Virus record (IMG/VR): IMGVR_UViG_3300042297_000490
DNA length: 64,000 nt
Source of the DNA: an uncultured virus (IMG/VR IMGVR_UViG_3300042297_000490)
Lineage: Duplodnaviria > Heunggongvirae > Uroviricota > Caudoviricetes
Strand: one strand, 5' to 3'
Shown: positions 22,213-48,883 of the stretch, one piece after another
How the letters are laid out: each line of letters begins with the position of its first letter
How positions within the stretch are numbered: position 1 is the first letter of the stretch
Notes under the pieces: generated by a model
Told to the model about the DNA's origin: nothing
Seen by the model: the letters and a program-made list of their open reading frames with translations, nothing else
The model's database searches: none
Made by a program: the position numbers and the translations under genes

Positions 22213-23466
22213 TTAATTAAGTTTAATTACTTTACCTGATTCTTTTAGGTGGTCTGCATCGCCACTGATAGTTGATAATACCCATAACATGTTTTTTACA
22301 GGGTTATCTGGTAGCGGTGCTTCACCATCTGTTAGATAGATGAGGGTAGAGAAACGATTACGGTGCTGATGATAGTAATTGACTACCGGATTAAAGTCAG
22401 TACCACCACGTTGTTTGATGATGAGTTCTTTTTTAGGACTATACTTGATTGGCTCTTGCATTTGTGTGTCAGCGAATATCAATGTGAAATCGTGACCTGA
22501 TTTGTACATGTGCTTAATCTCTCCAAGAAATTCCATTATTTCTGGTGTTGATACTGAAGCCGATGAATCTATACCGATGAGGATATGCGAATGCTCGTGT
22601 ATGCGGATACCAAAATCATGTTCGAATCGTTTGGACTTCTTGCGTTTTGTTTTGCGTACAGATGTCTTAATTGAGTTCCCAATAAATCTACGTAGGTATG
22701 CTTTCCAATTGAACTTTGGTGGTTCAATGTTTAGTAATGCTCCTATACGTTCTTCTATCTCACTTGGATATGTACCTCTTGATTTCTTTACTTGTTCTAT
22801 AGCATCACTAAGGATTGTTGCAAGTTGTCTATCTACAAGTTTTTGTTCTGCTTCTGATAGGTCTGTTGCTTCATCCCAATCATGTTCAGGTGTATTCATT
22901 GGTTTACCATTCATATCAACTTGTCCTGGATTATTTCCTTTAGGACCAGTTTGACTTGGATCACCTTGACCATCTTGCTGTTGATTTTTTGCATCGGCCA
23001 TAGCCTGCATAATCTTTTGCATAGTTGAGTCACCACCTTCTTGCTGTTGATTTAATTTTTCGTAATACTTATTACTACCTTCATGAGGTTTTAAATCATA
23101 GTGTGCTGGGTATTTATCAATCGTACATCCACCAACAGGAAGATATTGTTCATCAATCTTTTGATTAATCTCAATGTCCTTTGCTTGATTTGCAAGGTCG
23201 TGATTTTTCAAATGTTTGTAATCACTTAAATGGAAAAATGCTATGTGCATTAATTCGTGAATGATTAATCCCTTGCGTTCTTTTTCATTCAATGTATTCC
23301 AAAATTCAGGATTGATATATAGTTTGTAGTTAATACCTTGCAAACCAACTCCTGCTGTCTTTACCTTTGTGCTACTCCATTCTTTCTGTAGGTTTAATAA
23401 AAGTAATCCGTAGAACGGTTGTTCTAGCATTATCTGTTTACATACCTTCGTTAAACTCTGTTGCAT
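22213..23466 (-). CDS. DUF2201-type metallopeptidase + vWA domain protein
   Basis: HELMH, IDSSAS (MIDAS-like), GGTDF, LTDGE. Confidence 0.88.
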   Translation of the reverse strand: MQQSLTKVCKQIMLEQPFYGLLLLNLQKEWSSTKVKTAGVGLQGINYKLYINPEFWNTLNEKERKGLIIHELMHIAFFHLSDYKHLKNHDLANQAKDIEINQKIDEQYLPVGGCTIDKYPAHYDLKPHEGSNKYYEKLNQQQEGGDSTMQKIMQAMADAKNQQQDGQGDPSQTGPKGNNPGQVDMNGKPMNTPEHDWDEATDLSEAEQKLVDRQLATILSDAIEQVKKSRGTYPSEIEERIGALLNIEPPKFNWKAYLRRFIGNSIKTSVRKTKRKKSKRFEHDFGIRIHEHSHILIGIDSSASVSTPEIMEFLGEIKHMYKSGHDFTLIFADTQMQEPIKYSPKKELIIKQRGGTDFNPVVNYYHQHRNRFSTLIYLTDGEAPLPDNPVKNMLWVLSTISGDADHLKESGKVIKLN

Positions 23467-23902
23467 ATATTTCTAATGATTTAATTTTAGATTCCAATTC
23501 ACGTTCATCACTGTTTGACATACTGTGATTTTTTGTGATGAAACTTAATAAGTTTTTGTTTACCATGTAGAAATGGTGATTTAAACTATCTGCATCAATG
23601 TTGGTTAAGTTTCTTTGAATGTATTCAGATATATTACTCAAGACGCTCATTCTATCTTTGATACCTACACCAAGTTGTTGACGTATGTATTCACCAACTG
23701 CTTGTTGTTCTGTTGTAGCAGGAACGCTTCCTAATATGTAGAACCAATCTACTACGTTTGATGTGCTTAATTTACCCATCAGTATTCCATATCCCAACAT
23801 TCTTGCTTGTGCATCATTGCTGGTTATTAATTCTTTTATTTTCTTTTTGTATAGCATTTTTGAACGCTGGTTTAAAAAATAGTTTTGTACTCTCCGGACC
23901 AT
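23438..23902 (-). CDS. Hypothetical protein
   Basis: ORF between primase and vWA genes; probable start MLYKK. Confidence 0.55.
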   Translation of the reverse strand: MVRRVQNYFLNQRSKMLYKKKIKELITSNDAQARMLGYGILMGKLSTSNVVDWFYILGSVPATTEQQAVGEYIRQQLGVGIKDRMSVLSNISEYIQRNLTNIDADSLNHHFYMVNKNLLSFITKNHSMSNSDERELESKIKSLEIYATEFNEGM

Positions 23903-24842
23903 GCTCTTTAATGCAATCGGCCATGTCGTTTTCTACAGTGAAATAGATGTAAGGAATACCATATAAATCTTTATACTCTTTCATTGCTTTCATTCCAGCA
24001 ATGTCATTGTCGAACATAGTAAAGATATACTTGTACTGACTTCTATAATACTCAATTCTTTCTACAGGAATGTGTACGTTTTCACTGTCTGGAGCAATTA
24101 ACTCAAAGTCTTTTAACTTCATTGATTGAAATGCACCAATATCTTTTAGTGATGCTGCTATGATTAAGCATTGTCTGCTATAAGTTAATTGTTCTTCACC
24201 TTGAATGAACTCTTTTACTTTTAAAAATTTAGCTTTTTTATTGCGTGGATTATAAATTTTGCACAACTCTCCATACTTATTGAAGTAACCATAACTTATT
24301 GGTGTTGGGAATAGCATGTGTTGTGCTACACCATTTTTAGTTATAGTCATTGTGTATTCTGAAATTGGTTTGACTTGATATTTATTCAGAAAACTACCAC
24401 CTATATGGTAATCTTTCCAGTATTCTTCATCTAACTTATTCCATCTTCTTGTTTTGTAATCAGTAATTTCTTTGGTTACTTTTGATATGATTCCTTCAAC
24501 AACATAATCAATGTCTGTGTCATCTTTGAATATGTCTAATATTTTATAGAAAGCATCTTGTCTGGATAAATTAAAAAGATGTTCTGCTACATCTACATAA
24601 TCTCCATACTTTCCTGTAGAGAAATCTTTGAATCGATACATCCCATCATCTGCTAAAAATATAACCATTGATGGATCATTGTCTGCATCGTTAAATATAG
24701 ATTTGATTTTTACGGATTGACCGTCTAACTTCTCTTCTAGTTTTAATAATTTTTCAAATATTAATTTGCTCGGTATTGGAAAATTCTGGTGTGTGTAAAA
24801 TACAGCTTGTAACATAGAACAAATAAAAAAAGACCTATGCAT
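23814..24842 (-). CDS. DNA primase (Toprim)
   Basis: FKDFSTGKYGD N-terminal motif, SLKD, Toprim FDNDIAG, D-x-x-D. Confidence 0.8.
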   Translation of the reverse strand: MHRSFFICSMLQAVFYTHQNFPIPSKLIFEKLLKLEEKLDGQSVKIKSIFNDADNDPSMVIFLADDGMYRFKDFSTGKYGDYVDVAEHLFNLSRQDAFYKILDIFKDDTDIDYVVEGIISKVTKEITDYKTRRWNKLDEEYWKDYHIGGSFLNKYQVKPISEYTMTITKNGVAQHMLFPTPISYGYFNKYGELCKIYNPRNKKAKFLKVKEFIQGEEQLTYSRQCLIIAASLKDIGAFQSMKLKDFELIAPDSENVHIPVERIEYYRSQYKYIFTMFDNDIAGMKAMKEYKDLYGIPYIYFTVENDMADCIKEHGPESTKLFFKPAFKNAIQKENKRINNQQ

Positions 24843-24877
24843 AATGCACAGGCCTTTGGTTTATATTAAATTGTTAT

Positions 24878-25645
24878 TTAGTATGGTGCATCTTCATCAT
24901 CCATATCGAATAATGAATCATCGTCATCACCAGCAAATGTATCATCATCGTCATCAGCAGCATTGTTTAATGCTTCGCTTTCTTCAGCTTGCTTTTTATC
25001 TTTGATGATGTGAATTGATTTGTCGTACTCACCAACTTCTTCTTTTTCTGCAGCGATACATACTTTAACTTTTTCATCAGCAACATACGATTTGTAGTCA
25101 GGTAAGAACATGTAGTACACTGGGTATCCAGCTGTGTTGATTTTTTCTGTAGCTGCTAACAACCATTTGAAATAAACATCTTTAAATACCTTTGATCTGT
25201 TGAATCCATCAACAAACTCTTCAATCGTTTGAAATTTAGATTGATTTTCTGTAATCCAATTTGGAGTTTTAACAATGTTTAAAACCTTTTGGAAGAACTC
25301 ACCAATTTGTACAGCTACATTTCTTGTAACAGGCTTGCCTGTTTTCTTGTCATTGTAAGAGTATGCTTTGATTGGCCAGTTGGACATTTTGATTTTCTTT
25401 GTTTGTCCAAGGTACTGACCTTTTGATGGATCACCAAACACTTTGTCAAAGCCAACGAAGTCATTACCCATTGGTCTTGTTTCTAATTCAATGAACACTT
25501 CGTATTCAGGAACTGCAGGATCTTTTGGAGTTTTCTTTTTCTCAATACTGATTCTGTTAATTTTTGCAATTGCTTGCCCTGGTTTAATTTCTTTTGAAAC
25601 ATAAGTTCCACCTGTGTTCATTCCTGAAAAATCTAATCCGCTCAT
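24878..25645 (-). CDS. Probable single-stranded DNA-binding protein
   Basis: Strongly acidic C-terminal tail ending in an aromatic residue; lies between AAA_24 ATPase and primase. Confidence 0.6.
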   Translation of the reverse strand: MSGLDFSGMNTGGTYVSKEIKPGQAIAKINRISIEKKKTPKDPAVPEYEVFIELETRPMGNDFVGFDKVFGDPSKGQYLGQTKKIKMSNWPIKAYSYNDKKTGKPVTRNVAVQIGEFFQKVLNIVKTPNWITENQSKFQTIEEFVDGFNRSKVFKDVYFKWLLAATEKINTAGYPVYYMFLPDYKSYVADEKVKVCIAAEKEEVGEYDKSIHIIKDKKQAEESEALNNAADDDDDTFAGDDDDSLFDMDDEDAPY

Positions 25646-25674
25646 AACTTTTTTTTTAAAATTTTAATACTAAT

Positions 25675-26493
25675 TTATTTATTACTTTTTGTTGGTACAT
25701 ATATTTGATCCCAATGAGTTATCAAATTACCTTCTGTATCGTATTCGCTGATACATACTTCTCTTCCATCTAATCTTTTGATTTTACATCCAGTTAGAAT
25801 GTCATCACCTGGTTGGAAATATAAGTAGTTTTTACCACCTACTCTTGTCATATACGCAATAGCTTGTGCTGCTGCAGAGATCGACTGTTTATTTTTACCA
25901 ATAAGATTGATGTCATTCGATGTGAATTCAAGACCATCTCTCAAGATGTTTACTTCTTTGACGTGTGCAATATAGATAATATTTTCTGCACATGATTCAA
26001 TCAAACTTGTAAGTTGTTGAAATGCTTGACGAACATATTGGTAACCTGAACCATTCGGTAGGAATAGAATGCTTCCATACTTGAATTTCAAACTTTTCTT
26101 CTTGTCGATTTCCTTTGTTGCAGGATCTCTAACAATCCACGTACTACCCATTGGAGTTTTTCTGTACAGCATTTCAGCTTCAGGGATACAGAACTCTTCA
26201 AGTTTTGTCAACGTGTCGATGGTGATGTACTTGTAAGGTTTACCTGCTTCTTTAATCTTTGTTAAGATTTGACGCAACACACCTAAATTTTCAGCGTACA
26301 TAACCATACCATCTGCAGTCTGAATCTTATCTTCAAGGTTGATTACAAGATTGTTTTCTAATGCAGCAATTGCAGTAGTCTTACCAATCTTTGGTTTTCC
26401 GAAGACCAATAGAGGACTTGGATTAATTAATTTGCTCTTGGATGGAGCTGTAGGTAGAATGAAATCTGCTACTTCTTTGTTTTCATCGCTCAT
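25675..26493 (-). CDS. AAA_24/Sak4-like ATPase
   Basis: GKPKIGKT, ITIDTLT, YIAH. Confidence 0.8.
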   Translation of the reverse strand: MSDENKEVADFILPTAPSKSKLINPSPLLVFGKPKIGKTTAIAALENNLVINLEDKIQTADGMVMYAENLGVLRQILTKIKEAGKPYKYITIDTLTKLEEFCIPEAEMLYRKTPMGSTWIVRDPATKEIDKKKSLKFKYGSILFLPNGSGYQYVRQAFQQLTSLIESCAENIIYIAHVKEVNILRDGLEFTSNDINLIGKNKQSISAAAQAIAYMTRVGGKNYLYFQPGDDILTGCKIKRLDGREVCISEYDTEGNLITHWDQIYVPTKSNK

Positions 26494-27026
26494 TTATTAC
26501 TGGATTTAATGATTTCATTTAACCATGACTTATGACTTTTTGCTACCCCACCATGTATGCATGCATAATCGCGCAAAGTCATTGCTTCGAATGGTGCATC
26601 AGTATCTGGATCAGGAATATCAAAGTCTAAATCTTCTGGTACTTTACCTTGAATAGTTTTGTTAAAGGTTTCTTCAACCTCAAAGAACTCTTCTACCGGA
26701 ATCACGTAACGAATTACATCCGGTTGTTTTTCTGAACGAAACTGTGGATACTCTGTATTGTAGTGAGGATTAAACTTCCATACATACAGTGTTCTTTTTA
26801 TATCCGCTGGTTCAAAATCAAATGTGCTACGTTCTAAATATATATCTACACCTTTGGTTAATTCATTGGTGAAGAATGAACATACTTCTCTTCCTTTGTC
26901 GTCAAAGTAAAACGGTCTTGGTGAAAAGAATGGTCCAACTACTTTTAATTTTCTGAACGTATCAACATGTTCTTTGAACATTAGAGTGACCTTTTCTTTC
27001 TTTGTTAATACGATTTTTTTTGCCAT
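26490..27026 (-). CDS. Hypothetical replication-module protein
   Basis: 178-aa coupled ORF. Confidence 0.6.
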   Translation of the reverse strand: MAKKIVLTKKEKVTLMFKEHVDTFRKLKVVGPFFSPRPFYFDDKGREVCSFFTNELTKGVDIYLERSTFDFEPADIKRTLYVWKFNPHYNTEYPQFRSEKQPDVIRYVIPVEEFFEVEETFNKTIQGKVPEDLDFDIPDPDTDAPFEAMTLRDYACIHGGVAKSHKSWLNEIIKSSNK

Positions 27027-27030
27027 GATT

Positions 27031-28005
27031 TTATTTTTGGTCTTGTCCTGGTGTATCCATCTCGGCTATTTGCATACGTGCAAACTCTGCCTTATAGAAT
27101 GTTAAACCTGTCTGACCATTACGTGACTTAATCCAATGGAATACAAGCGTGTTGTCATCTTCTATTATGTATCTATCAGGACCATAGTATGAGATGTTTC
27201 TTTTTGCTGGTCTGTTAATACCGACAACGATGTCCGCATGCTGTAGTAAACCATCACCACCATAAATGTCCGACTCTAAAATGTAATTACCGTACTTGCC
27301 ATTCTCGTTTCGTTCAGGTCTATCAGTATCCCTGTTTAATTGAGTTAATAGAATGAATGCAATAGGGTATTTCTTTTTTAGTTCCGTACATACCTCACCA
27401 AGGTTGGCTAGCATTTCTTGTTTACTTGATTCCTCTTTTACTTTTTTAATAAGTACCGAGTGGTCAAGGGTAACAACGGTGTGTTGATAATGTTTAGTTC
27501 CATCTTCTGTTTCTATAGCATGCTTTGCCATATACTGCATGATTTCAGTTCTAAACTCTTTAACTGTTACTGCTTCATCAATAATATCAATTGGATATTT
27601 TGCTGCACTGATTGCATACTGATGACATTGTTTGATGAACTTATCATCTATAACAATTCCTTCTTCAGCTGAACTACACAATTCTTTATATGATAATCCA
27701 GTAACAGACGAGAACTCTCTAATCTTTGATGTTCTTCCAAACATTTCTAACTGAAAGGATAATACTCGTAAAGATAAACCAGGGTTTAATCCGAAGCCTT
27801 CTCTAATTATTTGATCAACAAATAATGTTTTACCTGATGCAGGTCTTGCACCAATCAACGTAATAGTATTGAACTCCAAACCTTGCATTGTACAGTCGTT
27901 AAAGGTAGCCCAAGGGGTTTTAAAGGTATGTATTGTACCCTTTTGCCTACCTCTCATGTACTTTAATGCATCTTGGTAATGATCTTTATGACTTTTCCAT
28001 TTCAT
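27031..28005 (-). CDS. dnaB: DnaB-like replicative helicase
   Basis: GARPASGKT, SFQLEM, LDH, LTQLNR, QHADIV, KSRNG. Confidence 0.9.
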   Translation of the reverse strand: MKWKSHKDHYQDALKYMRGRQKGTIHTFKTPWATFNDCTMQGLEFNTITLIGARPASGKTLFVDQIIREGFGLNPGLSLRVLSFQLEMFGRTSKIREFSSVTGLSYKELCSSAEEGIVIDDKFIKQCHQYAISAAKYPIDIIDEAVTVKEFRTEIMQYMAKHAIETEDGTKHYQHTVVTLDHSVLIKKVKEESSKQEMLANLGEVCTELKKKYPIAFILLTQLNRDTDRPERNENGKYGNYILESDIYGGDGLLQHADIVVGINRPAKRNISYYGPDRYIIEDDNTLVFHWIKSRNGQTGLTFYKAEFARMQIAEMDTPGQDQK

Positions 28006-28607
28006 CTTCTGCTTAATACTTTAATTGTGTGTGACTTTGGTTCCAAGTAATCTTCTTTCTTTAAATATTTATCACACCAGTTACCTAATTCAGATACAAC
28101 CATCTTTTCTGCATTTGCTTTGCGTATAAAATACATTGAGGTCTTCATAAATTTATATGAATCCATTTTATATTTCTGAACATACATAGCAGTAGCACCT
28201 AGGATTACATCCCAAGTATAGTTATACTCTTGAAAGAACCATTTGAAATTAGTTTCTAAATTCTTTACGTGAGTTCTTGCATAAGCACCTGATGGAAGTT
28301 TTTCTTTAGGAAAGATTTCATTATACTTTTCTACCTTTTCAGGATAATCATTTCCAAGCAGCTCATCAATCTTTAAGTTCTTTCTTGTTGCAAACAAATC
28401 ATCTATTCTTGTAAGAACTTTCATTGCTTTTTCAGTAAGAACAATACCTATTTCTGTATCAATATATAGATCAGGGTTAAGTTTTTCAAGATGCTTTTCA
28501 TCGATGGGTTCTTGGTTATATATCTTATGAATAAGAACGTATGCCGAGATTGGAATACCATCTTTTTTTAATCTATCGAACAACGAAGTTTGTTTTAATT
28601 TTTTCAT
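28002..28607 (-). CDS. Hypothetical protein, possible helicase loader or initiator
   Basis: Coupled to dnaB; function inferred from position only. Confidence 0.45.
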   Translation of the reverse strand: MKKLKQTSLFDRLKKDGIPISAYVLIHKIYNQEPIDEKHLEKLNPDLYIDTEIGIVLTEKAMKVLTRIDDLFATRKNLKIDELLGNDYPEKVEKYNEIFPKEKLPSGAYARTHVKNLETNFKWFFQEYNYTWDVILGATAMYVQKYKMDSYKFMKTSMYFIRKANAEKMVVSELGNWCDKYLKKEDYLEPKSHTIKVLSRR

Positions 28608-28617
28608 AAGAGGGCTA

Positions 28618-28625
28618 CAAATTTA
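28618..28625 (-). promoter_or_regulatory. Bacteroidota-type -7 promoter element
   Basis: Minus strand TAAATTTG(TAGCC), 10 nt upstream of the ATG at 28607. Confidence 0.6.
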
Positions 28626-29204
28626 CCAATTTAATTTTGTTCTTTCATTCTTTTCAAGAACTTTATTTATGTTATTAATTGTTTTGCTCTTATTTTCTTC
28701 ATCTTGCCAGAAAGGACTGGTGATTTTAGGTAAAAAGAATTTGTAACTAACCAGTGATAAAGAACTTGAAGCTGGATATGTTAATGGACTAATGAATATA
28801 ATTGGAACGTGACTTGTATTTTCTGATACAAATTCCAATACATTTTCATTAAAGAATTTCCACAAACTTCCATGTGCATTTTCTATTGATGCATCATCGC
28901 TATCTGTTCTGTTTAAAACAAGACGAAACGTTTGATCATCTAACTCAAATGGTAATTCTTCATGTGCAAATGTTACAACGACAGCCTTTAAAGATTGAAA
29001 ATTTACACGAAAGAATTCATTGAACCAATCTTTTAATGCTGGTGTAAACTTTACACCCTTTGTCATATCAGTTAATAGGGTATCCATTAAATTTTTGTGT
29101 GCGTAACCTTGTATATATGGCTGAAGTAATTCATGCCAAGAACTCGTTGCGAGTTTCAGGTCTAATTTATTATTAATATCTTTGATTTTTAAATCATTAC
29201 TCAT
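28623..29204 (-). CDS. Degenerate family-1 uracil-DNA glycosylase homologue
   Basis: SWHELL..KFTP..DWFNEF..LKAVVV, HGSLWKFF, NKVLEKN..LNW follow the UNG scaffold; GQDPY and HPSP motifs absent. Confidence 0.65.
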   Translation of the reverse strand: MSNDLKIKDINNKLDLKLATSSWHELLQPYIQGYAHKNLMDTLLTDMTKGVKFTPALKDWFNEFFRVNFQSLKAVVVTFAHEELPFELDDQTFRLVLNRTDSDDASIENAHGSLWKFFNENVLEFVSENTSHVPIIFISPLTYPASSSLSLVSYKFFLPKITSPFWQDEENKSKTINNINKVLEKNERTKLNW

Positions 29205-29517
29205 GTCGAATAAATTAAAGTTAAAAAGATTAAAAGAGGGTTGTACAGTTAGTATTGAACTTAACCCTTTTGTACACATGATGCTTCGTGATCAAGCGTT
29301 ACAAATGTTATCTAAATTAGAGGATGCTCCGGTTACTCTTGAAACTATTTCAAATGACAATTCATTTCTTACCTTTGAAGAAGCCCAGCTTAAACTGTAT
29401 TTGGCTTTAATTAAAGAGATTGAAGTTGTTGCTGAACGTGAAGAGAAGTTAGAAGATTATGAGTTTGAGTTTGAAATTGAAGGTGAACAACCTACTTCAG
29501 ATCCTTCTGAAAGTTAA
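29203..29517 (+). CDS. Lone antisense hypothetical gene within the leftward operon
   Basis: 104-aa ORF (MSNKLKL...) filling a ~290-nt gap; phage-like composition. Confidence 0.65.
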   Translation: MSNKLKLKRLKEGCTVSIELNPFVHMMLRDQALQMLSKLEDAPVTLETISNDNSFLTFEEAQLKLYLALIKEIEVVAEREEKLEDYEFEFEIEGEQPTSDPSES

Positions 29518-29887
29518 TACCTACAAATTCTCCAACAAGGTATATCTTTTCGATAACATCAGATAACTCTTTCCTAGAGAGGTCTGCAAAAGACTTGTAC
29601 TTTTTTTGATGGTCCACATAAAAGGTCAATCCACATTGATCTTTTATGTCCATCTTTGTTTTCTTTACATCCTCACCAGTTTCATCTGCAATTTCTTTTA
29701 ACATTACATGAATCTTTGCGAGCTGTGATTTGGTATTGTCTGGTTCATCTGCTTCAAAGATTGTATCAATGATGTCATCAGGACCTAACGACTTAATAAA
29801 GTCTTTAAGTCTTTGTTTCATCAGTCCATCTTTAGGAACAAGTTTACCATTCTCTACGTGAAATCGTATCAAACAGGTTTTTTTCAT
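29492..29887 (-). CDS. NinB-like protein
   Basis: QLAKIHVMLKEIADETG...KSFADLSRKELSDVIE resembles NinB/YbcN. Confidence 0.5.
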   Translation of the reverse strand: MKKTCLIRFHVENGKLVPKDGLMKQRLKDFIKSLGPDDIIDTIFEADEPDNTKSQLAKIHVMLKEIADETGEDVKKTKMDIKDQCGLTFYVDHQKKYKSFADLSRKELSDVIEKIYLVGEFVGINFQKDLK

Positions 29888-30057: not shown

Positions 30058-32088
30058 TTGTTGTATGGTTTGATTGTAAAGTAAGATACGTATGGATCAT
30101 CAAATAGTTTCATCTTTTTTGCAAGATAGCATTTAACAATATCACAGGCATATTCGACAAAGGTTTCATACTCGTTTGGATCCATGTTGTTGGCCGACAA
30201 ATAATTTTTTAGCATCGTTTCATTGATTGATTCTAATATTTCATACGCTTCTGGTATAAGTTCATCAATGTACTCTTGATCGCAGTGCTTTATTTTTAAT
30301 TGTGGTTCGCCAACATAAACTCTTTCATTGCAGATTAATGTTACTACTCGTTTACTAATCCACATGCTGTCGTATGGGTGTTTTGTCATTATGATATTGT
30401 TTAAGTACATACTAACAATAATATAATGTTTTTAATTGACACTCTCCCATTCTTTTCCTTGAATAGTATCATCTAACTTTTCATAGTCTTCTATAGTTGA
30501 CCAATCTTCGTCATCTATCAATCGTTCCCATTCTTCATCACTAATAGTACCATGATCGTGTGTTTCAGTTTCTTCAGGGTTTGTTAAATAATAACAACTA
30601 TCAAATTCTTCATCTGTTAAATAACGATGTTCTAAAATTGGTTCTTCACCTTCTTCTACATCTCCATGGTTTAATCGATAGTGTTCATATATTTTATTAC
30701 CTGATTCTTCTGCTTCTTGAATAAAATCAACTGTAAATTTTAATGCAAGCCATTTAACATTTTCTGGATTAGAATTCCATTTTGAGTCATATCTGATTTG
30801 AATAAAAGGATTGTCAATTTCTGATTCTTCATTTACATTTTCATCTTCAACACTTATGTTGAAAAAGTAACCATCTTCAGGTGCATCTTGTATAATTGGT
30901 ACAACACCCATTCCTGTTTCGATAGCTCTTGTTTCCATGTCCTTAAATATCTTTAGCAATTGCTGTAGATTTTCGCGAGGACCTTCAAAAGTTACATTGT
31001 TCCAACACCAATTAGCCATTTCAGTCGAATTCTGGGTTAATGCCAACAGTTTGGCCATAATGATGTCGTAGTTTAGAACTTGGGCCATTCTTTGGGAATA
31101 ACTTTCGGTTCCTGTGCTTGTTGTCTTTCTTCATTTACTTTGATTTTTGATATGTGAATTAAAGTATATTTTTCTTCATCGTAACTTTTACTACGTACTG
31201 GATACAACATACCTTTGATGAACTCCATGTAATGTTCTTTGATGAAACTATCGTGATCTGGTAAAGGATTGTAACTATACAATAAATGATGCACAGATGC
31301 ATGATTAGTTACGTTAATTATTTCAGCAATTTCACGAAGATTGTATCCTGCTGCAAATGCAAGTTTTGCTGTATGATATTTCATAGCAACCATGTGTGTT
31401 GAACGATGCTTGTATCCAGCAAAGTAACTACCAGCAAGTTGTAATACAGGATTGTTTTCTCTTACTGCGTTAGGATCTGTTTTACCATAGAGTTTATAAT
31501 TAATCTTTCCATGGTTCACCGTTGTAGATTCGTTTTTCATCTTTGGACAGTGTTTTGTAATTATATGTTGGTAATTTGGTACACAACATTTCTTTTTCAG
31601 TCATATATGGCTCGTTCTTATAGCCAAAGTAGATTGTATTTTCAAATAAGCAGTTGTCATACCACCTAGTTAATTGTGAATAGACCATAATGGACTGTTC
31701 AATTTCTTCTAAAGTTGTATTTTTTAATGTTGATGCTACTTCATTTGGTGTACAACCACCTATTATCATTTCAGATACTTTCTTGTGCCATGATTGATCA
31801 CGCGATGTGAAACACATCAGGTTTAATCATTTCTTCGATTTCAGCATGTGCTTTAGCCATATCTTCTGTATAGATTGCAAATCGTTTTGGACTCCAGTAG
31901 TGATAGGGAAAACAGTTTTCTCCAAGAGGTTTTTCAATGATGTGAAAGCCTTGTGCTTGCGATGATAGTAAAAACTCTACACCGCCTACTGTGTACACTT
32001 CTTGGTCAACAACACGACAATCAATTGGAATTTCCATAGGAATATTCTTGTCGTCTATGCATATTACTTTAAATGGTTCTACTTGCAT
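30054..32088 (-). CDS. Five hypothetical genes (30054-30410; 30432-31088, ferredoxin-like DUF1281/YubB-like MANWCWN; 31073-31540, HTH-like; 31500-31817; 31798-32088)
   Basis: Coupled ORFs; weak motif resemblance only. Confidence 0.5.
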
Positions 32089-35906: not shown

Positions 35907-36840
35907 TTAAGCCAAGGGTTTACCTTTAGCGTTATAATACTCTACAAGTTTAATCTTGTATTCTATTCTTCTTAATCTGTCGGTGATGTTATCCGATTTC
36001 CAATAATGGTCGGTTCTGCAATCACGCCAGTCATCTAAATCAAAACTTTTTGTTAACGATGCAAATGTACTCCAAGCGGCATCATATAATTGTTTGTATC
36101 TCCATGCTGGTATTCTTTCTTCTTCTACATAATCAGGATCTATTTCGGAATCATCTAGGTTGAACTCGTTATCCATTTGAATTAGTTTATTGATGTAGGA
36201 TTGATGATAGTAACAGCAACCGCAGTTACCAAGAAATGGAATAAAAACTTTGATACTATTCACCAACCTACAACAATGTTATTTAATCTTCTTCGGTGTC
36301 TTCAGGCTCACCTTTTTCCTTTGAGTACAACTTGTTGAAGTATGCTAATCTTTCAGCAATTTTTTTATTTACTGATTGTGAATCGTTAGCGTCCTTTGGT
36401 TTACTCGTTGTATCTTTTTCACGTTTAATGGAATCATCCACACGTTAAATATTAAATTGTTTTTTAATGTAGTTCAGTGCACCTTGCACCCAACTATTGT
36501 CCTCGTGTATCTGACATTTGTTAGATTTGGGATAGAATGTAATACGACTGCTTCCTACAGGAGATAGCACTATTCTAGTATATTCTTCATATATTTCTAC
36601 ATCTACACCTTTAGCACGAAGTTTTTCTACGATGCTTTGTTCATAGATTTTTGATACATTCTCATGACGTATTGCTTTCTTAACCTTACCCATATACGCT
36701 AGGTCATTGTCTTCTTTTGCTGCATCTTCTTTAAGTGCATTGACAATCCTTTTGTTAATGGTATTGACTAATTCTTTTGCTTCGTCAAGTGTATATGTAC
36801 CAATTAAATCACTGCAATCAATTGTTTTTTCCATAGCCAT
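35907..36840 (-). CDS. Hypothetical genes (35907-36266, a short ORF at about 36283-36441, 36445-36840)
   Basis: ORFs on the coding strand. Confidence 0.5.
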
Positions 36841-38697: not shown

Positions 38698-39198
38698 TTA
38701 TTCTTCAATCAAATGATTGTAGTTTGTACCATAGGTACTGTTTTTTGCAAGTTGCATTGCTGCTTTTTCATGACAATCTTGGTCATTGCTTGGTTTAATT
38801 GTTATATTTTTTGATTTTAATATTGCCTGTAATGTTTGTTCTAATGTATTGGCACCATCACTAATTTTAAGAGTTCCGTATTTTTTCCAATTAGTTGAGT
38901 CGTCAACTGTACCACCTAATAAAGCTCTTACAAAATCATCTCCCACATATACAACTCTGTAATCAGCTTCAAACGTGAATGCTTCACTATAAACTCCTTT
39001 ACCTACAACCAAAGGTACAGTTGCTTTTAAATTAGGAATTACAACGATCATTGATGCTTTTTTAACGAGTTTTGTGTCATATACGCCACCATTATGTTCA
39101 AGAATGTTAAATTCAGGATACTTTTTTATAGTGGTGCGAACTTGAAGCAAGTCATCCATACTTGCTTCGTTCGACTTACTGATGTAAACATTAATCAT
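38698..39198 (-). CDS. Nucleoside deoxyribosyltransferase/TIR-like fold protein
   Basis: VYISKS at the N-terminus, D..LVKKASMIVV, VGKGVYSE pattern. Confidence 0.4.
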   Translation of the reverse strand: MINVYISKSNEASMDDLLQVRTTIKKYPEFNILEHNGGVYDTKLVKKASMIVVIPNLKATVPLVVGKGVYSEAFTFEADYRVVYVGDDFVRALLGGTVDDSTNWKKYGTLKISDGANTLEQTLQAILKSKNITIKPSNDQDCHEKAAMQLAKNSTYGTNYNHLIEE

Positions 39199-42100
39199 TT
39201 GCTTCATCGTTACCATCGACCATCCATTCAGAATCGATTTCTTTTGCAACTTTGATTTCAATCTCTTTCAATCTAATGTCCATTTTCAATGCGTGGATTT
39301 GTTTAATCCATTCTGATGCATCAAATGATTCATCAACGACACGTAATGATGTAGATTCATCTGGTCCAATGTCAGTTAAGGCATTAAGTCTTTTGATTGA
39401 CTCACGCTTTTCTTTTTCTAACTGTGCAATAAATGCTGTTGATTCTGCAGCGATGTCTTCCATTGCTGTTTTTGCTCTTGCTGATAACACTGCTTTATTA
39501 TCTGCTGATAACATTCTTTCTAACTTGTTCATTTTCTTTATTTTAAAATTATTAATACTTGTTTGATGATTGATTGATGATAGTAACTAAAAAATAGTTC
39601 CTTCATCGATTATGATAAAGGAACTATAAATATAAAATGTTTATTGTACTTCTACAAATAAACCTTTATCATCTTGTTCAACACTTATTTCTCCACCCCA
39701 TTGAACATCGACAATGTTTCCTGCGGTTAAATCTTTTTTGATTTTCTTACACATTCTTTCCATGTCTTTCGGTGTCATGTTACCTTGTGCATTTACGTGA
39801 TCGTTCCAAATTATATACACACCAACTCTATACAATTGTGTTGAATAGTTTTCTTTAGAGCCATCTGGCAATGTTACCACTGCGGACTTATTGTATGTCC
39901 ATGTAGATTTATTTGCCATTACGCTTCAGTTGTAGGTTTTCCTGGAAAATCTTTAGTGATGCTGTTCTCTTCTTCTACAGTACTACCTGTAGTTAAGTTT
40001 GCAAACAAATCATCTGCATCTTTTTTACCCAAGTTTTGTTCAACGATTGAACGTAGTTGCATTGCAGCTACTGCAATTTCCATAAGGTTGCTACCATTCA
40101 ATGCAATCTTTAACTTTACTCCATCTTCTACAGTTGTTTCTGCGAAGTCTATGATAATTTGTGTTGACATACTTATTTTATTTTTTCGTAAATAGTTTCA
40201 CCATTGCTGAACCTTGCGGTAACAACTAATGGCATTGAATTTTCTGTAAATAGTTTTTCTGTTACTTCAATAAGAGAATCTTGAATGTTATCCACCCATT
40301 TCTCTGCATTTCTTGATTGAATTTTTCTTAAACCTGCATTCATATAGGTCATATTATCTTCAATTGTATAGTCTGTGTGTTCAATAAGTTCTGTTTCTCC
40401 TGCAAAGGTACAAGTTAAATACCAATCAAGTGAAGCACCTTCATAATATGCATGTCTTGCTACACAATTTATGTTTACTTGCACTTCTACATCTCCAAAT
40501 CCTTTACAAACATATAGTTGAAACAAAGGTGTGGATCCATATGATCGCAATGAATGCGGATCTTCCATCTCTAACTCTTTATAGTATTTGATGTTGTTCT
40601 TTATTGCTAATGCTTCTGCTTGCAATCTGATGTCTTGTATAAAACAATCTATATCCCATGTGTCTGGTGCAATAGTTTCTGTTTCACCTGTTTCATTTTC
40701 ATCCTCGTCAAGAATTTCTTGCTCATAGTTCATCATTACAGCGTAAGTATTGCGAGCATTAACTGTATAAAAGTTACTTGTTCCCATATACTTTAAATTT
40801 GAATGCACCCCAAAGGATGCTGATTTCTTTTATGACTTCTTTCTTTTTCTCGGTAGCAATAAGAGATTGTCCTTGTTCTGGTACAAACTCTTTGTCTATG
40901 TCGTGGTCAGCACCTTTTTCAGGCTTGTGAATTATAACAACTTGTTTAACCATAGGATCATCACCAGCAACTTCTTCCGCTTGTTTTTTCAACCTTGCTC
41001 TTGCATCGCGTGCTTTAGCAGCAGCATAATCAATTACTTCTTTGATTTCTTCCAACGGTTTTTTCATTGGTTCATCAGTTATGTAAAGCGCAGTTTGTAC
41101 TGGTTGAGGATTACTCTTAACAGGTGTACAGGAAATCAATTCAGGCTGTTTCTTTTCTACCGGAATTGGCTCAACAACTTTCTCACGTGCTGCATAGATA
41201 CCATTAGCATAATAGTAGGAACCTTTTTCATTTCTGATTTTGATACTTGATATGTCACCTTCTATGCACTCATGTTCAAATTTTCCTACTGATTTACACA
41301 TGGCTCTGTTAGGTGCTCTACCTACATCATCTATTGGAACATAAGAGATTCCTTTTTTGTAACGCTCACGAATTTCTGCAGTAATTGATTCAAGAGTCTT
41401 TTCAAATTCAATCATTTCATCTGTTGCTGATATATGAATAGGTGTTTCCTCGTATTGGAATACAACAGGTAAAGACTTGTATTTCTTTTTTAATACATTT
41501 TCTTTTAACCATTTTAATTTTTCTTCTGGCATACCACCTGGTATAGCATTAAAATGTGCAATGGTATCTGTTGTTTCTGAATCCAATATGTAATCTAACA
41601 CATGATCATCGCTCATAAACTCTAATAAACTTGTTGTGTTACACCATGCATCGAACGATAAGTCTGATATGTTTTTCTTTTCGTTCATGTGTTGTTCAAT
41701 TTTTTTGGACAACGACAATGCATTCTTCTCTTTACCGTAGATGTAACACTCTTCTAATATAAAATCAACCATTTCCATTGTAGGAAAGTTAGTTGTCCAT
41801 GTGTAGAAGGTATTGCCTGTCTTTTTGGTATAATGTTTAAGGATCATCATTGTGATGTTGTTACCAACTTTCAATTCTTTTCCTTTACTTTGAAGGTTTT
41901 TCTGCTTATCTTTTTTACATTCATTGTAGATATGCATCATTATTTCGAACACTTTTTCTTTATGTTCATTGGTGTATTCTTTTCTTCTGCTCTTGTATGG
42001 TCTTTTAGTTGTCATGCTTGTAGTAGTTTAGTTCGTTGACTCTCTTCCATTCTTAATTCAGTACCACTTTTGTGGTAGAATTTTGGTGTTATAGAAAAGT

Positions 42101-43209
42101 ATGCTTTTCTACTGATTTGTACGTCAACTGATGACGCTAAACAAGCCACTAAAGGCTCAATTTCGATTACATTTGTAACCCTTCTTTTAAAGTTTTTCAT
42201 GGGTGAAAATATTAAAAATTAATAATCAACTCTACCATTTTGGTAAAGGTCTTCTTGTCTGCATTTTATTTCTAATTCATCAAGGGATTGCAGGAACCCT
42301 ATGATTTCTTCTTTGAACTCTTCGACACCAACAAATGTTTTGACGATGTGTTCCAACAAAATAAAAGATGTATCATATAAATCAGCGTATGTATGTTTTG
42401 TTAACGGATTTAATGATTCTTTGAATGTTGGAAGGAATGTCATTATCGGTGCATAACGATGAATGAGGTACGACAACAATTCTGATGATAGTAACTCGTA
42501 CCACACGTTACCTTCTTGATACTGAATAGGCAAATGAATTGCCTTGCTTATTGGTACAAGACATATCGTACCTTCATTTTTGTTGACGTACTTGGTGTAT
42601 TGTAAATATTGCATAGCATTTAGTTATGAGTATAGAAATCTTCTTCATCAATACAATCGTAAATTATATCTCTTGAAACTATTGAATCTTCATTAAGCAT
42701 TTCATCGTACACGAATGTACCTGTCTTAATGTAATAGTAAACCTCTGCTCTATATGCATATTCTATTACACAATTAGGAGCTTGGGTTATGTTGTATAAA
42801 GGTTGACCTTCATGTTCGCCTGCTGGTGTTAGGACACCTGTCCATAACATCCATAAAAATTTTAAATTAATCATATATGATGATATTTATTGATTGTTTT
42901 AACTGATGTCATATTTTCTGTAGGATGACTTGAACCTATTGATGTTGGATATACACACTCTAATGGTAAATACATACAGTAATGTAACTTACCTGTATTG
43001 TGGCAACCATTGTCTTGACTTGATCTTCGCTTATAGTCAGTGAATACTGGTTCATCGAACTCTATACCATACTTATCTTTTGCTTCTGTGTACTTGATTA
43101 TAGTACCTACCTTACCTTCGTATAGGTTTGTATAGAAAGCTCTTGCTGCAAGGTATCCAACCTTCTTGTGCTTGCCATTTACTACAACTCTTGTTCCTAT
43201 TGGTAGCAT
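39191..43209 (-). CDS. Cluster of hypothetical genes (39191-39532, 39641-39919, 39919-40170, 40173-40808, 40774-42015, 42012-42200, 42219-42614, 42620-42874, 42871-43209)
   Basis: Contiguous coupled ORFs; no family recognised. Confidence 0.55.
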
Positions 43210-43296
43210 AGTCTTCTGTATTGTGCCAATGCGGCTGTGTAATTGAATGCATAGAAGGTCTTTCCGTCTATGATGTAGCGATGTTTCTTGAATGTA

Positions 43297-43932
43297 TTAG
43301 CCATGTTGTTTATCGATTTGTTCTTGAAGAGCATCCCATATAGTACGCGGTCTATCAGGCTTATTCATTAATGCTTCAAGGTCGAATTCGTATTTGTATT
43401 CACGCATCTCTTCCAATGCACGTTCATAAAATTCTACCATTGATTGAGCCATTGCTATCTTACCTTTATACTGGCGTACCTTTTCTTCGATCATCATTGA
43501 TAAGAAGTTAACACCTTCATTTTCTTTTGATACACGAAGGATGCTCTTCTCTATTTTTTCTACGTGTTTGCTGTATTCTTTGATAGCATCGTTTGCTTTT
43601 TTTAATTCTTCACGTAGCACACCGATACCATGTCCAATCAAGTCGATGTTTAAATCATCAGACTTTTCTATCTCTGGTATTAGTACCTCTAATATGAATG
43701 AAGCAAACCTTTCTTGGAAGGCATCCTTTATTTCTGTTTCACCTGTTGTATCGTAGTGTTCACGTTTCTTATCGCTACCTAGTACATCATACGCTAACTG
43801 AATTGTTTGGAATACTTCCTTGTCACCACCTTTATCAGGATGATTTTCTTTAACACCTTTACGATGGGCTTTCTTTATTTGTTCCTTGGTCGCATCTTTG
43901 TTGACACCGAGAACATCATATAGGTTTTTCAT
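43297..43932 (-). CDS. J-domain (DnaJ-type) protein
   Basis: LYDVLGV...IKKAHRK...HPDKGG...AYDVL..KREHYD. Confidence 0.88.
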   Translation of the reverse strand: MKNLYDVLGVNKDATKEQIKKAHRKGVKENHPDKGGDKEVFQTIQLAYDVLGSDKKREHYDTTGETEIKDAFQERFASFILEVLIPEIEKSDDLNIDLIGHGIGVLREELKKANDAIKEYSKHVEKIEKSILRVSKENEGVNFLSMMIEEKVRQYKGKIAMAQSMVEFYERALEEMREYKYEFDLEALMNKPDRPRTIWDALQEQIDKQHG

Positions 43933-46900
43933 ATTCTTTCAGATAATAGTTAATAAAATTTCTTTGTGCTGTTTCTAAAGAGATGATGTTACTAAACTTA
44001 TTAGTAGCAAATAGATGTCCATGTCTATACCGAACGACAACATTTATTTCAGATAGTTTAATTGATAACTCCCCACTTTTTAATTTAACTTGAGCACATA
44101 CTGATTTAAACTCTAACGTGTATTTATCACGTATGAATTTTCTATGCGTCTTGTTTTGCACGATGACTTATTGTAAGATGTAATTGTGATTGTTCATCAA
44201 GTATGTCTAACAGTTCTCTGCTTGATGCACTACCATTATTGAAACGCATCATTAGTTCATTACTTTTTGCCATCATCCTTAACATATCGGTCTTATCTTT
44301 AAGATGACGTGACGACTCTTGCATATCATTACAAGATTGTTGTATCAAATTCTTTTTAGAGCGTTCAAATAATATCACGCCAATCATTAGTCCTAACGAT
44401 AGGCCTATAAAAAATATAATTAATTCCATTGTTTAAATTTTTAATTGTTAATACTATGGTGAGGATCGCCATTGATGTCATCTCCGGCATCCACCCATTA
44501 TTTCTTTAATCCTTTGATAATTTCTACTACTTTGTATGCTTCTTCTTCAGCAAATGTTATCATGTTTTCTTCATCGGAATCCCAACAACCATTGAACTTT
44601 TCACCGGATAGATGCATCATTTCGTGCATTACTAATCCCATTGTGTGAATGTCATCAGTACATCTTGACAGATTGATGAACACAAAGTTTTCGTTGTCTT
44701 TAGAATAATCGCCTGATAATTTTGGTACATAATTGCATAGGCCTGCTATGTATGCAATCTCTGTTGTATTTGAATGTGCTTCACATTCTGCTAACGATAG
44801 TCCATGCATTTCTGTTACATTAAAATGTGTAAACAAATCGCAAGGATTATAGGATAACAACAGTGTATAGAACGTAAACTTTATTGTAATCATTTTTCTT
44901 TTTTATTATTGTACCAAAACCAATCTTCTTTTATTTCTCTGTAGTCAACAGCGATGTCTGCTTTTAAACATGCTCTAAAGAATGTATTTTCGCTTGATTG
45001 TTCTTTGTTTATTATTGCAGTTGGAACTCCATCTACATCTACAAATTGAATCTTTTCACCATTGTTATTACTTGTTGGTGTTACATAACGAAGGAACCAT
45101 TCGTACATATCATTCCCATATTTTATAAGAATGAACTGTGTCTTACTGTGAATCATCAAAGCAAAATCAAGTTTGTGAACTATGTATTCACCACCGGTTC
45201 CACGATGTTCATTTATTCTACAACTTTTTTCATAGAATTTTAGATAGTCACGATCTAATTCTCGTTCCATTGTATTTTATTTTGATTGATAATCTTCACG
45301 TGGTATGATAAACATACATTTCATAACTCCATGTTGAATTAAATCCAATGGTAATAGAATGTGTGCATCAATAAGTGTGTTAAGTATTCCTTCGTTTTCG
45401 GAATAGTTTTTTACACAAACCATATCTTCTGATAAATAAATATCAGGCATATTGACTGAAGCAGTCATAAAGGGTTCACCTGTTTCTTGCTCGTATAATT
45501 GAATTGATGTGCGTTGATTGTTGTGATATTTTCCAAACACTATGTTGCAAGGAGTATCTGCGAATGTTATTGAATAGTTTTTCATTGTAATACTTTTTTG
45601 AGCCCTTCGGCAATTAAATCAATTACTTCTTGTCGTGTGTATTCTTTTTGAATTTTACCTTCACGAGAAATGTTTAGCATGTATTCTCTATACACAAAGG
45701 AACCAAGAGGATATGTTACATCGACTTTGGCTAATTTTACGTGTGTAATTTCAGTAGGTGGTGACGATGATAGTAAATGCCGAGCTTCCATTTGTCGCAA
45801 TAGAAACTCGGCTTTTTCACTATACTCTTGCATCATCTTCCAATTCACGTGTGAACCATTCTTGTAGTTCATCACGTAGTAGGTATTGACCGCTACGGTC
45901 TTGTCTATTACAAGCGTCAGTTAGTTTTTCAGGATTTGTGAATTTAACTATATACTCTAGCAACGTATAGTTGTATTCACAGATGTCGTTAAAGAGTACG
46001 TAGATACTTGAACCACGTAGTCCTAACTCTTCCATTTTGGATACCACGAACATACCAAGCATAAGGTTTTCCTTTACAAGATTACCTAATGCATGAGTGC
46101 ATCCTATATTACCCTCGGATATTTGAATGATTTTATCTCCTATTGTCATAATGCTTGTTTTTAAATTCTTCGATTTGAATTTCTAATTCTGTTGAATTGT
46201 ACGGAACGTACATTACATCAACCTCTGCGTTGTCATTGTATCTGATGTGTTTCTCTAGCAAGGTTATATATTCCATTGCTTGTTCTAGTTCCGCAGTAAC
46301 TGATTTCACTGGTTCTAAAGATAATTCTTCATCATCTAACAGTATAGAGATACATACTCTTAATCCTATTGTTATAGATAGTACAATGTAACATATCTCA
46401 AGGAGCCATTGTATCCAACTAAACTCGTATAGATTGACTGTACCACCTGCAAGTATAAGTTGCAATACAATTGATGAAAGGAATGCTATAGACGTTCCTG
46501 TGATGATTATTAGGGCTTTATTTATCGTTTTCATAAGTTTTAACTATATAATATTATTGTGGACTGATTTTGTTGGCATTGGGAATATGATGAATATGGT
46601 GTAGGGAATTCTTTCACATACACACAAAAACACCAATTATATTCGCAATCCTAGTTTAATTTCGATGAAATGGGTTTATTTGTCGACGAAATTGATTAAA
46701 ACCCCGTAATAAGGGTACTAAATGCGCTGTTTTCTTCGACGAATGATATAAAAACCACAGGTCAACCTCTGCTTTACAGTATGAGAGATTATGCCTGAAA
46801 CCCTGTGGTTTACGCTGAATGCTAATTGTGTGCGTGTAATGGAATTAGAATTGTATTAAATCTAAATAACCAAATGTGATCAAGAATGATACACCTATCT

Positions 46901-47039
46901 TAACCACGACACCACCATTATGGTAGTGATGTAGTAATGGTTCATTCTCTTTGTTAGCAAGTGCTTGTAGATTGTTGAACTCTGATTGTGTAACCAGTAC
47001 CTCTACATTGCTGTTCTCTTTTATTTGTTGTTCTGACAT
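43916..47039 (-). CDS. Cluster of small early-type genes (43916-44161, 44142-44429, 44498-44893 with HEMMH, 44890-45270, 45277-45585 DUF4313-like, 45582-45875, 45820-46149, 46133-46534 membrane, 46845-47039)
   Basis: Contiguous ORFs; GEPFMTASVN..VKNYSENEG resembles DUF4313. Confidence 0.55.
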
Positions 47040-47456
47040 TTTTTTATGGATTGTGGATTAATATTATGCGATGGAAAGATTACGATACATTGATGATAGT
47101 AACTTCCATTTAACTATGTACGTCACCTGCTTCATCGCAGATGAAGACTTGGGTATGCTTACTCTGCATACTATGGGATAGTAATTTCAGGGAGTTTGAA
47201 CCGGAGGTTCAGCCCTCGGAGAGCCGGAAATGTCGCTTGGCCCCACCGGCCTTAAAAACCTGGAAGGTTTTTAGCGAGGTGTCCATAGGTAAGCCTAGCC
47301 GGCAAGGAAATGGAATTTCCTTTTAAGGCGACACGAGAGCATCACACACTGCATACTATGGGATTGTAATTTAAACAAGAGAGCGTCACACGATGGGTGA
47401 GCAAGTGATAGTAATCTCTTACCAATCTCTTCTATCGTGGTTGACTTGTTACAAAA

Positions 47457-47492
47457 AAATATAGAGCAATCCCGAAGGACTGCTCTATATTT
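47457..47492 (-). terminator. Intrinsic terminator with cUUCGg loop
   Basis: Minus strand AAATATAGAGCAGTCC-TTCG-GGATTGCTCTATATTTTTTT directly after the stop at 47495. Confidence 0.8.
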
Positions 47493-47494
47493 AT

Positions 47495-48208
47495 TTACAG
47501 GTCATTAAGCATACTAAACAATGAACCTAACGCAGTAGCCTTGTCGTCTTTGTTTAATTTGGATATTACCTTAACAACATTCTCTGCCTTTTTATCGGCT
47601 TTCTTGCTGTCTTGAATTGCTTGGTAATCTTTTTGTTCCTGTAACTCAATACCTTGTTGGATTATTTCCGATGCCGATGCAAGTATTCTACCGTTGAAAG
47701 TTTTCGTGTACATTGTACCACGTTCTTGCATTGGTGTAATTGCTTGTTCTACAATCGGAAATAGCATTCCTCGAAAAGCCTCGTTAAAGTCTTTGATTTG
47801 AGAGTTGTACTCTTCTTCAAAAATGTTAACCAAATTTTGGTTAGTTAACGAAACTAAATGAGGACCAAAGTGGAACTGAAAGCGTAGTTTCTTGTTTGAA
47901 ACTGTGATTTTCTTGAATGCAAGCATTGCACAAGAAATATCAACGATAGCACCGCTTTCAGTAGTGGTATTGAATACTTTGTAATCAATACCTTGTAACC
48001 TTTCCGCAGGTTTAGCAACAACTTTCTCTTCGTTAGAAGAGGGTGTTGGTTCATCATCAGCATCATCTCCAAGTTTATCTTGGATTTCTTTTGCTAATGT
48101 TTTTAACTCGTCCAATTTCATTGGTGTTAATTGGTCCGTAGTTAATGGATTTGCTAACAAACCTGCATTGTTAGCAATAAAATCGATGTGTTCTTGTTTA
48201 GTTTTCAT
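47495..48208 (-). CDS. Hypothetical early protein
   Basis: ORF starting MKTKQEH, flanked by hairpin-box elements and a terminator. Confidence 0.7.
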   Translation of the reverse strand: MKTKQEHIDFIANNAGLLANPLTTDQLTPMKLDELKTLAKEIQDKLGDDADDEPTPSSNEEKVVAKPAERLQGIDYKVFNTTTESGAIVDISCAMLAFKKITVSNKKLRFQFHFGPHLVSLTNQNLVNIFEEEYNSQIKDFNEAFRGMLFPIVEQAITPMQERGTMYTKTFNGRILASASEIIQQGIELQEQKDYQAIQDSKKADKKAENVVKVISKLNKDDKATALGSLFSMLNDL

Positions 48209-48883
48209 AGCGAAAAATTTAAACATTAATAAAATAAAAGTCAATTGTTTTCGTACAATTGAAAATGAAAACGGTCTTAATTAAAATGCGAAGCAAATAT
48301 GCGAAGCAACCCGTTAGGGGAAAAGAAGACTTTAGTCTTCAGATTAAGATAACCGCAATGGGTGTGCGTGTAGCGAATTTATTCGCGTTATTAAGATAAC
48401 CGCTGTGAGCGTAAGGCGAACAGATGGGCGTGGGTGTCAGGTCGTGTACGTCAGGGTATCAGTGCGCAAACTTGTTTGCGTGGGCCAGTACTTCAGGGTA
48501 TGCGTGACATTACGAAGTAATGAGGAACCGCGAAGCGGTTACTATCATCATACAGCACACACCACACAAGGGTTATGATATACACACAACAACCAATACG
48601 ATAGTCACATGCTGATAGACGCTGAACATAATGATGTGACAAGGCTGATAGACACTGATGAACTATGGATGATAGACACTGCAGATCAAATGATATGACC
48701 AAGCTACACATCTCTGTGCAACCTGGTCTTTATATCTACCACCATTGCTGGTTACTACTACCTCTATGACGCACAGACTTCCTTGCCTGTTTGTCATTAT
48801 ATTTCTTAGCCTTTGCGTATCCGCAACTGCTATGTGTAGTAGCACATGATGTTACCACCATTGCTACTACCAATATCATTACT

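Follow-up and report, generated by a model that had tools for sequence, protein, structure and literature searches.

A polarised DNA word in a crAss-like phage and a small gp50-like protein that may nick at it

The window examined here, a 64,000-nucleotide stretch of DNA from an uncultured virus (IMG/VR IMGVR_UViG_3300042297_000490), carries a short word, TTACTATCAY when read on the strand that codes for the early genes, that is enriched, one-stranded, graded in density from the early end and conserved in relatives. Both the presence and the sequence of such words go with a small gene of the Syn5 gp50 family, within the crAss-like clade of the window and across unrelated phages. The best reading, to which we give an even chance, is that the phage encodes a nickase specific for these sites, which account for the polarised word, the candidate enzyme being a 97-residue protein encoded at positions 57627 to 57920 (+ strand).

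Copies, strand and gradient of the word

The leftward arm of the window (7.7-50.3 kb) holds replication and small early genes, and the rightward arm holds lysis and packaging genes, with the terminase last. The gap from the first leftward early open reading frame (ORF) to the first rightward ORF (50344 to 50732) is presumed from this gene layout to be the genome end.

The 11-base form of the word, GATGATAGTAA as written on the + strand, occurs there at 22368, 31961, 36203, 39576, 42484, 45766 and 47092 and once on the − strand, at 48539-48549; the eight coordinates of a preliminary description of this DNA are all exact. No variant with one mismatch is present in the window. Relaxing the word to RTGATAGTAA brings in two more copies, at 11936 and 47405, the former missed by that description, which had itself warned of missed copies. 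The shorter copies that it placed at 47177 (GATAGTAA) and 47406 (TGATAGTAA) are both present, the first being the 8-base core TTACTATC followed by CC (47177 to 47184), a copy that may be non-functional. A rough base-composition estimate had put the expectation at well under one copy; the eight exact copies stand against a mean of 0.10 and a maximum of 1 in 100 dinucleotide shuffles, and no other 9- to 12-mer in this DNA ranks higher when scored against an order-3 Markov model.

In the early-gene reading these copies lie on the − strand and the inverted copy on the +. Six fall within genes: 11936 to 11945 (TTACTATCAC) in a Dda-like helicase gene, 22368 to 22378 (TTACTATCATC) in a metallopeptidase-vWA gene (YYHQ frame), 31961 to 31971 in a 96-residue ORF (LLSS frame), 36203 to 36213 in a 119-residue ORF (YYHQ), 42484 to 42494 in a 131-residue ORF (LLSS) and 45766 to 45776 in a 97-residue ORF (LLSS). 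Those at 39576 to 39586, 47092 to 47102 and 47405 to 47414 (TTACTATCAC) are intergenic, and the last of them is the final correctly oriented copy before the presumed early end. The claim that the word lies both within and between genes is thus borne out, with five of the seven + strand 11-mers in called genes, three of them in the LLSS frame and two in the YYHQ frame.

Nor is the word a codon artefact. The in-gene count of five 11-mers compares with a mean of 0.41 under a synonymous-codon null, and the observed count was reached in none of 300 codon shuffles, either in the window or in four complete relatives. Chance or codon usage, which we regard as a negligible explanation, is refuted for the 10- and 11-base word by these shuffles and by a reversed control word in relatives (below), although the 8-base core taken by itself shows no significant excess inside genes in two relatives, G009 and G016.

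Among 26 long records drawn from 78 terminase loci, 16 contained the 11-mer; of its 47 copies, 46 share the strand that codes for the terminase, and the reversed control word had no match. A second set of 24 records, overlapping in part with the first, had the word in 20, one-stranded in 19 of these. The consensus on the early-gene strand is TTACTATCAY, and its flanks are not conserved. The site at 31961 keeps 11 of 11 bases, at the same place, in the orthologous gene of three relatives (G009, G007 and G008), in which protein identity is only 43-50%. Two of the three window sites with comparable orthologs, 22368 (kept in 0 of 9 orthologs) and 11936, are not retained; three other sites had no ortholog for comparison. 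Because 31961 is kept but 22368 and 11936 are not, single sites turn over while strand and density persist.

A rise in density toward the control region had also been described, and it is found toward the presumed early end in the window and three relatives (Kolmogorov-Smirnov p 7e-10 to 0.009), with distance measured from the first rightward gene as a proxy for an inferred genome end. The flip in orientation claimed for the same region is absent: leftward ORFs run on to 50343, past the lone inverted copy at 48539 to 48549, which is still part of the leftward early region. No copy occurs in the rightward arm (50.7-64 kb), and complete relatives hold no inverted one. The inverted copy directly follows a GCGAAGC stem-loop word, a pairing also seen in relative G024 (C1:25421-25431). 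These two are the only inverted copies in the clade, both at most 2 bases after GCGAAGC and 1.3-2.2 kb from the first rightward gene. Three degenerate + strand repeats, GMTGATAGAC, which have the core CTATCA in common with the word, follow the window copy at 48611-48682.

Eight crAss-like genomes carry 53 copies on the coding strand of the early arm (6.0 expected) and 6 on the same DNA strand of the late arm (9.0 expected). Wrong-strand copies in this clade number 2 against 11.4 expected, as low as 1.1% of peer words; they are also low in two genomes without the gp50-like gene (0 against 3.65). An excess confined to the early-arm coding strand is what a transcription or RNA signal of that arm would give, be it a promoter element, an antitermination site or an RNA cleavage site, and many copies, notably in Cellulophaga phage phi40:1, are intergenic or near gene starts. 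All genes of T7-like genomes lie on one strand, and DNA strand and RNA sense are therefore inseparable there. We nonetheless find such a signal improbable. In-gene positions are scattered and turn over, the partner protein resembles a His-Me finger, and copies on the late-arm template strand exceed chance in phi40:1 and G058 (6 against 1.2 expected); the same late-arm strand test gave 5 copies against 0.40 in phage tf. Moreover, proven nick words are likewise mostly on coding strands and often at gene starts (PMC11780129; this and the other papers cited are drawn on in excerpt).

The preliminary description took the word for a directional protein-binding site. One-strandedness in relatives, conservation at 31961 and the gradient agree with this, but a reader protein and nick sites had not been considered. 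Of the functions it listed, DNA entry or packaging comes closest, and promoter or antitermination roles are less likely because copies occur at any relative gene position, two of three comparable sites are not kept and phi40:1 and G058 show the template-strand excess.

Association of the word with a gp50-like gene

All six word-bearing genomes first examined carry the gp50-like gene, and both word-less ones lack it. Among 44 ORFs common to four word-bearing, near-complete genomes (G009, G007, G016 and G032), this gene alone is absent from both word-less relatives, G017 and G018. It is also the sole ORF of G009 with a match in Syn5, S-CBP2, 9515-10a, P-SSP7, P-SSP2 and S-TIP28. TACTATCAY is unpolarised (counts throughout by strand) in two further complete relatives without the gene (1:2 and 2:2) and in two partial ones (1:3 and 3:2), and three further gene-bearing relatives have the word at 7:0, 4:0 and 6:0. 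Two 66 kb records of smaller phages, G035 and G036, have no terminase match to the window; each has a very close homolog of gp50, with TACTATCAY present on either strand.

The window gene encodes a basic 97-residue protein (57627 to 57920, + strand) that matches PHROG 6437 (E 3.8e-26) and is 62% identical to Syn5 gp50 over 66 residues. Homologs occur in T7-like cyanophages, Cellulophaga phages and Flavobacterium phages, and the family is listed as of unknown function. Some members are altered: the homolog in the S-TIP37 record (40643-40932) is split over two frames, and that of S-CBP4 (39026-39292) has lost the C-terminal motif; either change may be real or a sequencing error. S-TIP37 has no graded word, and S-CBP4 has one. 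A gp50-like domain also stands at the end of many proteins of 200-1000 residues and at the start of several kinase-like proteins (P0014, P0040-P0150).

A codon-aware de novo scan for one-strand words, which recovered the tf nick word as its top match in a control, yielded one-strand words, most of them related, in gene-bearing phages. Among cyanophages these were CACCATCAC in Syn5 (15:0), CACCATCATC in P60 (7:0), CCACCATCAT in 9515-10a (4:0), TCACCATCA in S-CBP2 (7:0, fourth-ranked), ACACACTCAT in P-SSP7 (5:0; in the form CACACTCATC, 5 sites), CACACTCAT in P-SSP2 (6:0), TCACACTCAT in S-CBP4 (4:0), ATCTCTCAT in S-TIP28 (12:1), CACGAGAG in S-CBP42 (12:2) and CACAATCG in NATL1A-7 (9:0), whose only gp50 homolog is diverged and was recognised by position and motif (E 7.3). 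Phage phi40:1 gave CACTATCA (15:1) and the crAss-like G032 gave TTACTATCAT (17:0). In records that appear to begin at the early end, the words of Syn5, S-TIP28, S-CBP2, P-SSP7 and S-CBP4 are skewed to the left (p 0.002-0.026) and are indistinguishable from the tf nick map (p 0.34-0.54; small n).

Predictions were made for 20 new contigs chosen by gp50 subtype, some of which may be cultured isolates close to earlier ones. Contigs with P-SSP7-type genes had CACACTCAT at 7:0, 5:0 and 5:0, and a fourth had CCACACTCA at 4:0. CACCATCAY was found with three of five Syn5-type genes (5:0, 8:0 and 7:0), at 4:2 on a partial contig and not at all on a diverged one. There was no cross-over between the words of these two types on the early strand. 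Contigs with phi40-type genes had CACTATCA at 18:1 and 13:2 and CACTCTCATC at 5:0. Ten of the 20 had no clear word. Over all de novo scans, a one-strand word was present in 28 of 48 gene-bearing genomes, and most of these words are related.

Words follow the gp50 gene better than they follow portal or capsid. Between Syn5 and S-TIP28, capsid identity is 78% and gp50 identity 51%, and the words differ; between Syn5 and 9515-10a the figures are 44% for the capsid and 76% for gp50, and the word core is the same. Across 17 T7-like genomes, with words chosen by us from the scans and word-less genomes left out, word distance tracks gp50 distance given portal (partial r 0.49, p 0.001); over the three controls portal, capsid and terminase, partial r is 0.49-0.50 (p <=0.001), and with the adjacent small terminase as the control it is 0.37 (p 0.009). 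Portal given gp50 gave r 0.14 (p 0.13), and the reverse tests overall gave p 0.10-0.14.

These comparisons bear on two other explanations. The packaging machine, with the terminase small subunit as reader and gp50 as cofactor, might read the word as a directional packaging or pause signal. In T7-like cyanophages the gp50 homolog is encoded immediately after the terminase small subunit, word distance correlates with that of the subunit as well (r 0.47), and packaging has already been proposed as the role of tf nicks (PMC3517423). However, no ORF of G009 other than gp50 matches in most cyanophages, and the gene lies 3.3 kb from the terminase in the window and 19 kb away on the opposite strand in G016, where the word keeps its strand. 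We therefore consider a packaging signal unlikely.

Slightly less probable still is mimicry of a signal of the host, for instance a Chi site or DNA-translocase word, by which the entering end is protected or guided. The 9515-10a word read on the opposite strand is GATGGTGG, which we take to be one base from E. coli Chi, in an orientation readable by an enzyme loading at the early end, where word density peaks. Yet words differ among phages that infect a single host genus (P-SSP7, 9515-10a and NATL1A-7; Syn5, S-TIP28 and S-CBP42), similar words occur in phages of different host phyla, and the word is unpolarised in relatives lacking the gp50-like gene.

The predicted protein, its possible action and the phage that carries it

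The model of the 97-residue protein consists of long helices and a beta-beta-alpha finger bearing D67-x-S69-H70 and N84-R85. Across 68 family members D67 is invariant and S69, H70, N84 and R85 are conserved in at least 90%, so that the hallmarks of a His-Me finger, a His ending the first strand and an Asn in the helix, are kept. Foldseek returned small HNHc proteins for the model at probability 0.96-0.99, among solved chains T4 endonuclease VII ranked first and the GVE2 HNH protein fifth, and atlas neighbours were HNH_3/HNH at 0.91.

That the gp50-like protein binds the word seems to us probable, and that it cuts, if binding holds, rather likely. Binding without cutting, with the protein packaged on DNA and acting in ejection or shielding the first-entering end from host nucleases, is the foremost alternative, though a doubtful one. 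All links between gene and word would fit it, tandem mass spectrometry underlies the annotation of gp80, the homolog in phi40:1, as a virion protein, Ser precedes the His in most members and the sequence is very basic. Against it stand the near-invariance of D67, H70 and N84, the D-x-D-H of the phi40:1 type, and the match of word, strand and gradient to the real nicks of tf. A Ser-His pair with one Asn ligand is reportedly active in I-PpoI.

Under the nickase reading, the 97-residue protein would recognise TTACTATCAY as its site and, late in infection, cut one strand of late or packaged DNA, the one that codes for the early genes, so that the nicks would form a ladder most closely spaced toward the early end. 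By analogy with tf, the cut would probably come after TACT; at 47092 to 47102 a cut of this kind (TACT/ATC) would lie between 47098 and 47097. The purpose is the least certain step. Nicks in the non-template strand would leave the template whole, and at the first-transcribed end they could act as swivels during packaging or during transcription-driven pulling of the genome into the cell. Transcription-driven genome entry is known from T7.

Several points weigh against this reading. No nick has been observed, the basis being assembled contigs, and the fold match to the His-Me finger is weak. Of the 48 gene-bearing genomes, 20 have no clear word, and a targeted search in these found nothing beyond controls. 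The gene-less genomes form a single clade in a terminase tree of 24 rows and therefore represent one loss. Phage tf itself has no detectable homolog of the gp50-like gene.

More broadly, and with a chance a little short of even, crAss-like phages, T7-like marine cyanophages and Cellulophaga podoviruses may have in common a portable module, namely a His-Me-finger nickase of fewer than 100 residues with its own 9-10 base word, in which the word is dictated by the sequence of the enzyme. Each genome would then evolve a ladder of sites on one strand, with the highest density at the end that enters first. Should the pairing of gene and word prove real, programmed nicks would extend to crAss-like phages and marine cyanopodoviruses, nicked virion DNA would be common among abundant aquatic phages, and interruptions of the T5 and tf type would gain a named enzyme-site pair in cultured models, Syn5 and P-SSP7. 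Cultured phages would also offer a small, named gene for deletion, and the family would provide a natural set of very small nickases that differ in their 9-10 base specificities. The pair suggests an enzyme that may make the programmed single-strand breaks of phage DNA, which have long lacked an explanation, and even binding alone would give a widespread but unannotated family of phage genes its DNA target.

By its terminase and converging arms, and by the portal and capsid of a relative, the window is part of a crAss-like phage. The terminase large subunit (60954 to 63179, + strand; PHROG 6681), which served to orient relatives, has its best named matches in uncultured cr-phages and Flavobacterium phages (23-26%). 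Relative G007 has a capsid of PHROG 11589 and a portal of PHROG 6547, with a match also to portal entry 7qog, which we take to be crAss001. Complete relatives measure 114-125 kb, the sequencing runs holding window DNA are lake and freshwater metagenomes, and we infer a Bacteroidota host. Large late ORFs tested in a search for a virion RNA polymerase had no PHROG match.

Other elements lie near the presumed end. A 32-base element containing the near-palindrome AAGACTTTAGTCTT occurs four times (48322-48353, 49622-49653, 49999-50030 and 50355-50386), each just upstream of a leftward early ORF; its exact core is in none of 10 relatives, and it is a candidate early promoter or operator. GCGAAGC lies on the early-arm template strand at 48288, 48301 and 48530, with clusters near the presumed end also in G007 (3), G008 (2), G024 (4) and G032 (4); we take it to be the known extra-stable DNA mini-hairpin, reminiscent of the hairpin promoters of the N4 virion RNA polymerase. 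Early ORFs are closely preceded by two similar GC-rich hairpins (49124-49165 and 49383-49424), and three TGCACC-A-run-GGTGCA repeats (50741-50846) lie within the first rightward ORF. Farther off, a 107-residue ORF (10662-10985) has a weak Pfam match to ADP-ribosyltransferase exoenzyme, under the curated cut-off. Three other genomes have repeats of other kinds: ACTCCTTACT ten times on a single strand in a 2.7 kb stretch of the early region of G031 (C1:22436-25139), GCTTTAGCAA-type words strongly over-represented on both strands throughout G009, and AGCATCGAGC nine times in G024.

Comparison with known phage nick sites

Nick words are a known kind of feature, and the programmed nicking of phage DNA was recognised some 50 years ago. 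A search that left out most subscription papers and supplements found no paper on the TTACTATCAY word, on nicks in the crAss-like, cyanopodovirus or Cellulophaga groups, or on a role of gp50. Excerpts of PMC3517423 and PMC11780129 call the function of programmed nicks unknown.

The closest likeness is to the tf/LUZ24 group. All 14 of 14 proven tf nicks fall at TACT/RTGMC on the top strand, 11 of them in the left half, and LUZ24 and PaP3 carry TACTATGAC (PMC3517423); nanopore reads gave 13 such breaks in a tf relative, and the word is in 60 more phages (PMC11780129). In the tf record the nicked strand is the coding strand of the early arm. The window word TACTATCAC is one base off the LUZ24/PaP3 word and lies on the same strand relative to early genes. 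Both systems have a 9-10 base non-palindromic word (TACT/RTGMC or WACTRTGAC in that group) with TACTAT.A in common, on the early-gene coding strand, lying in genes as well as between them and most frequent in the early part of a genome with two converging arms. The window differs in having C for G at position 7, in one inverted copy and in belonging to an unrelated crAss-like phage of ~120 kb. Unlike the tf system, it is known from sequence alone, with nicks not shown, and late-arm copies are not enriched in its clade. WACTRTGAC and TACTRTGMC have 0 copies in the window and no one-strand excess in relatives, and the relation is therefore one of likeness, not membership. A candidate enzyme is linked to the window word, whereas none is named for tf in the excerpts of PMC3517423 and PMC11780129.

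Nicks are documented also in T5/BF23 and Andromeda, according to the excerpted literature. Those of T5/BF23 (R/GCGCRGG) and of phiKMV-like phages (CCTA/CTCCGG) are likewise one-strand sites in packaged DNA, with different words. T5 sciA and sciB map to the late region (PMC3517423), and the packaging block of T5 includes a small HNH-like gene, T5.153, which is not similar to the gp50 family.

Small HNH proteins encoded beside terminases are strand-specific nickases (PMC3592412). Such enzymes, N.phiGamma and the GVE2 HNH protein among them, have zinc-binding cysteines and 3-7 base sites beside cohesive ends. HK97 gp74 is presumably a further one. Unlike them, the window protein has no cysteines and goes with 9-10 base words that are spread in a gradient over the whole genome.

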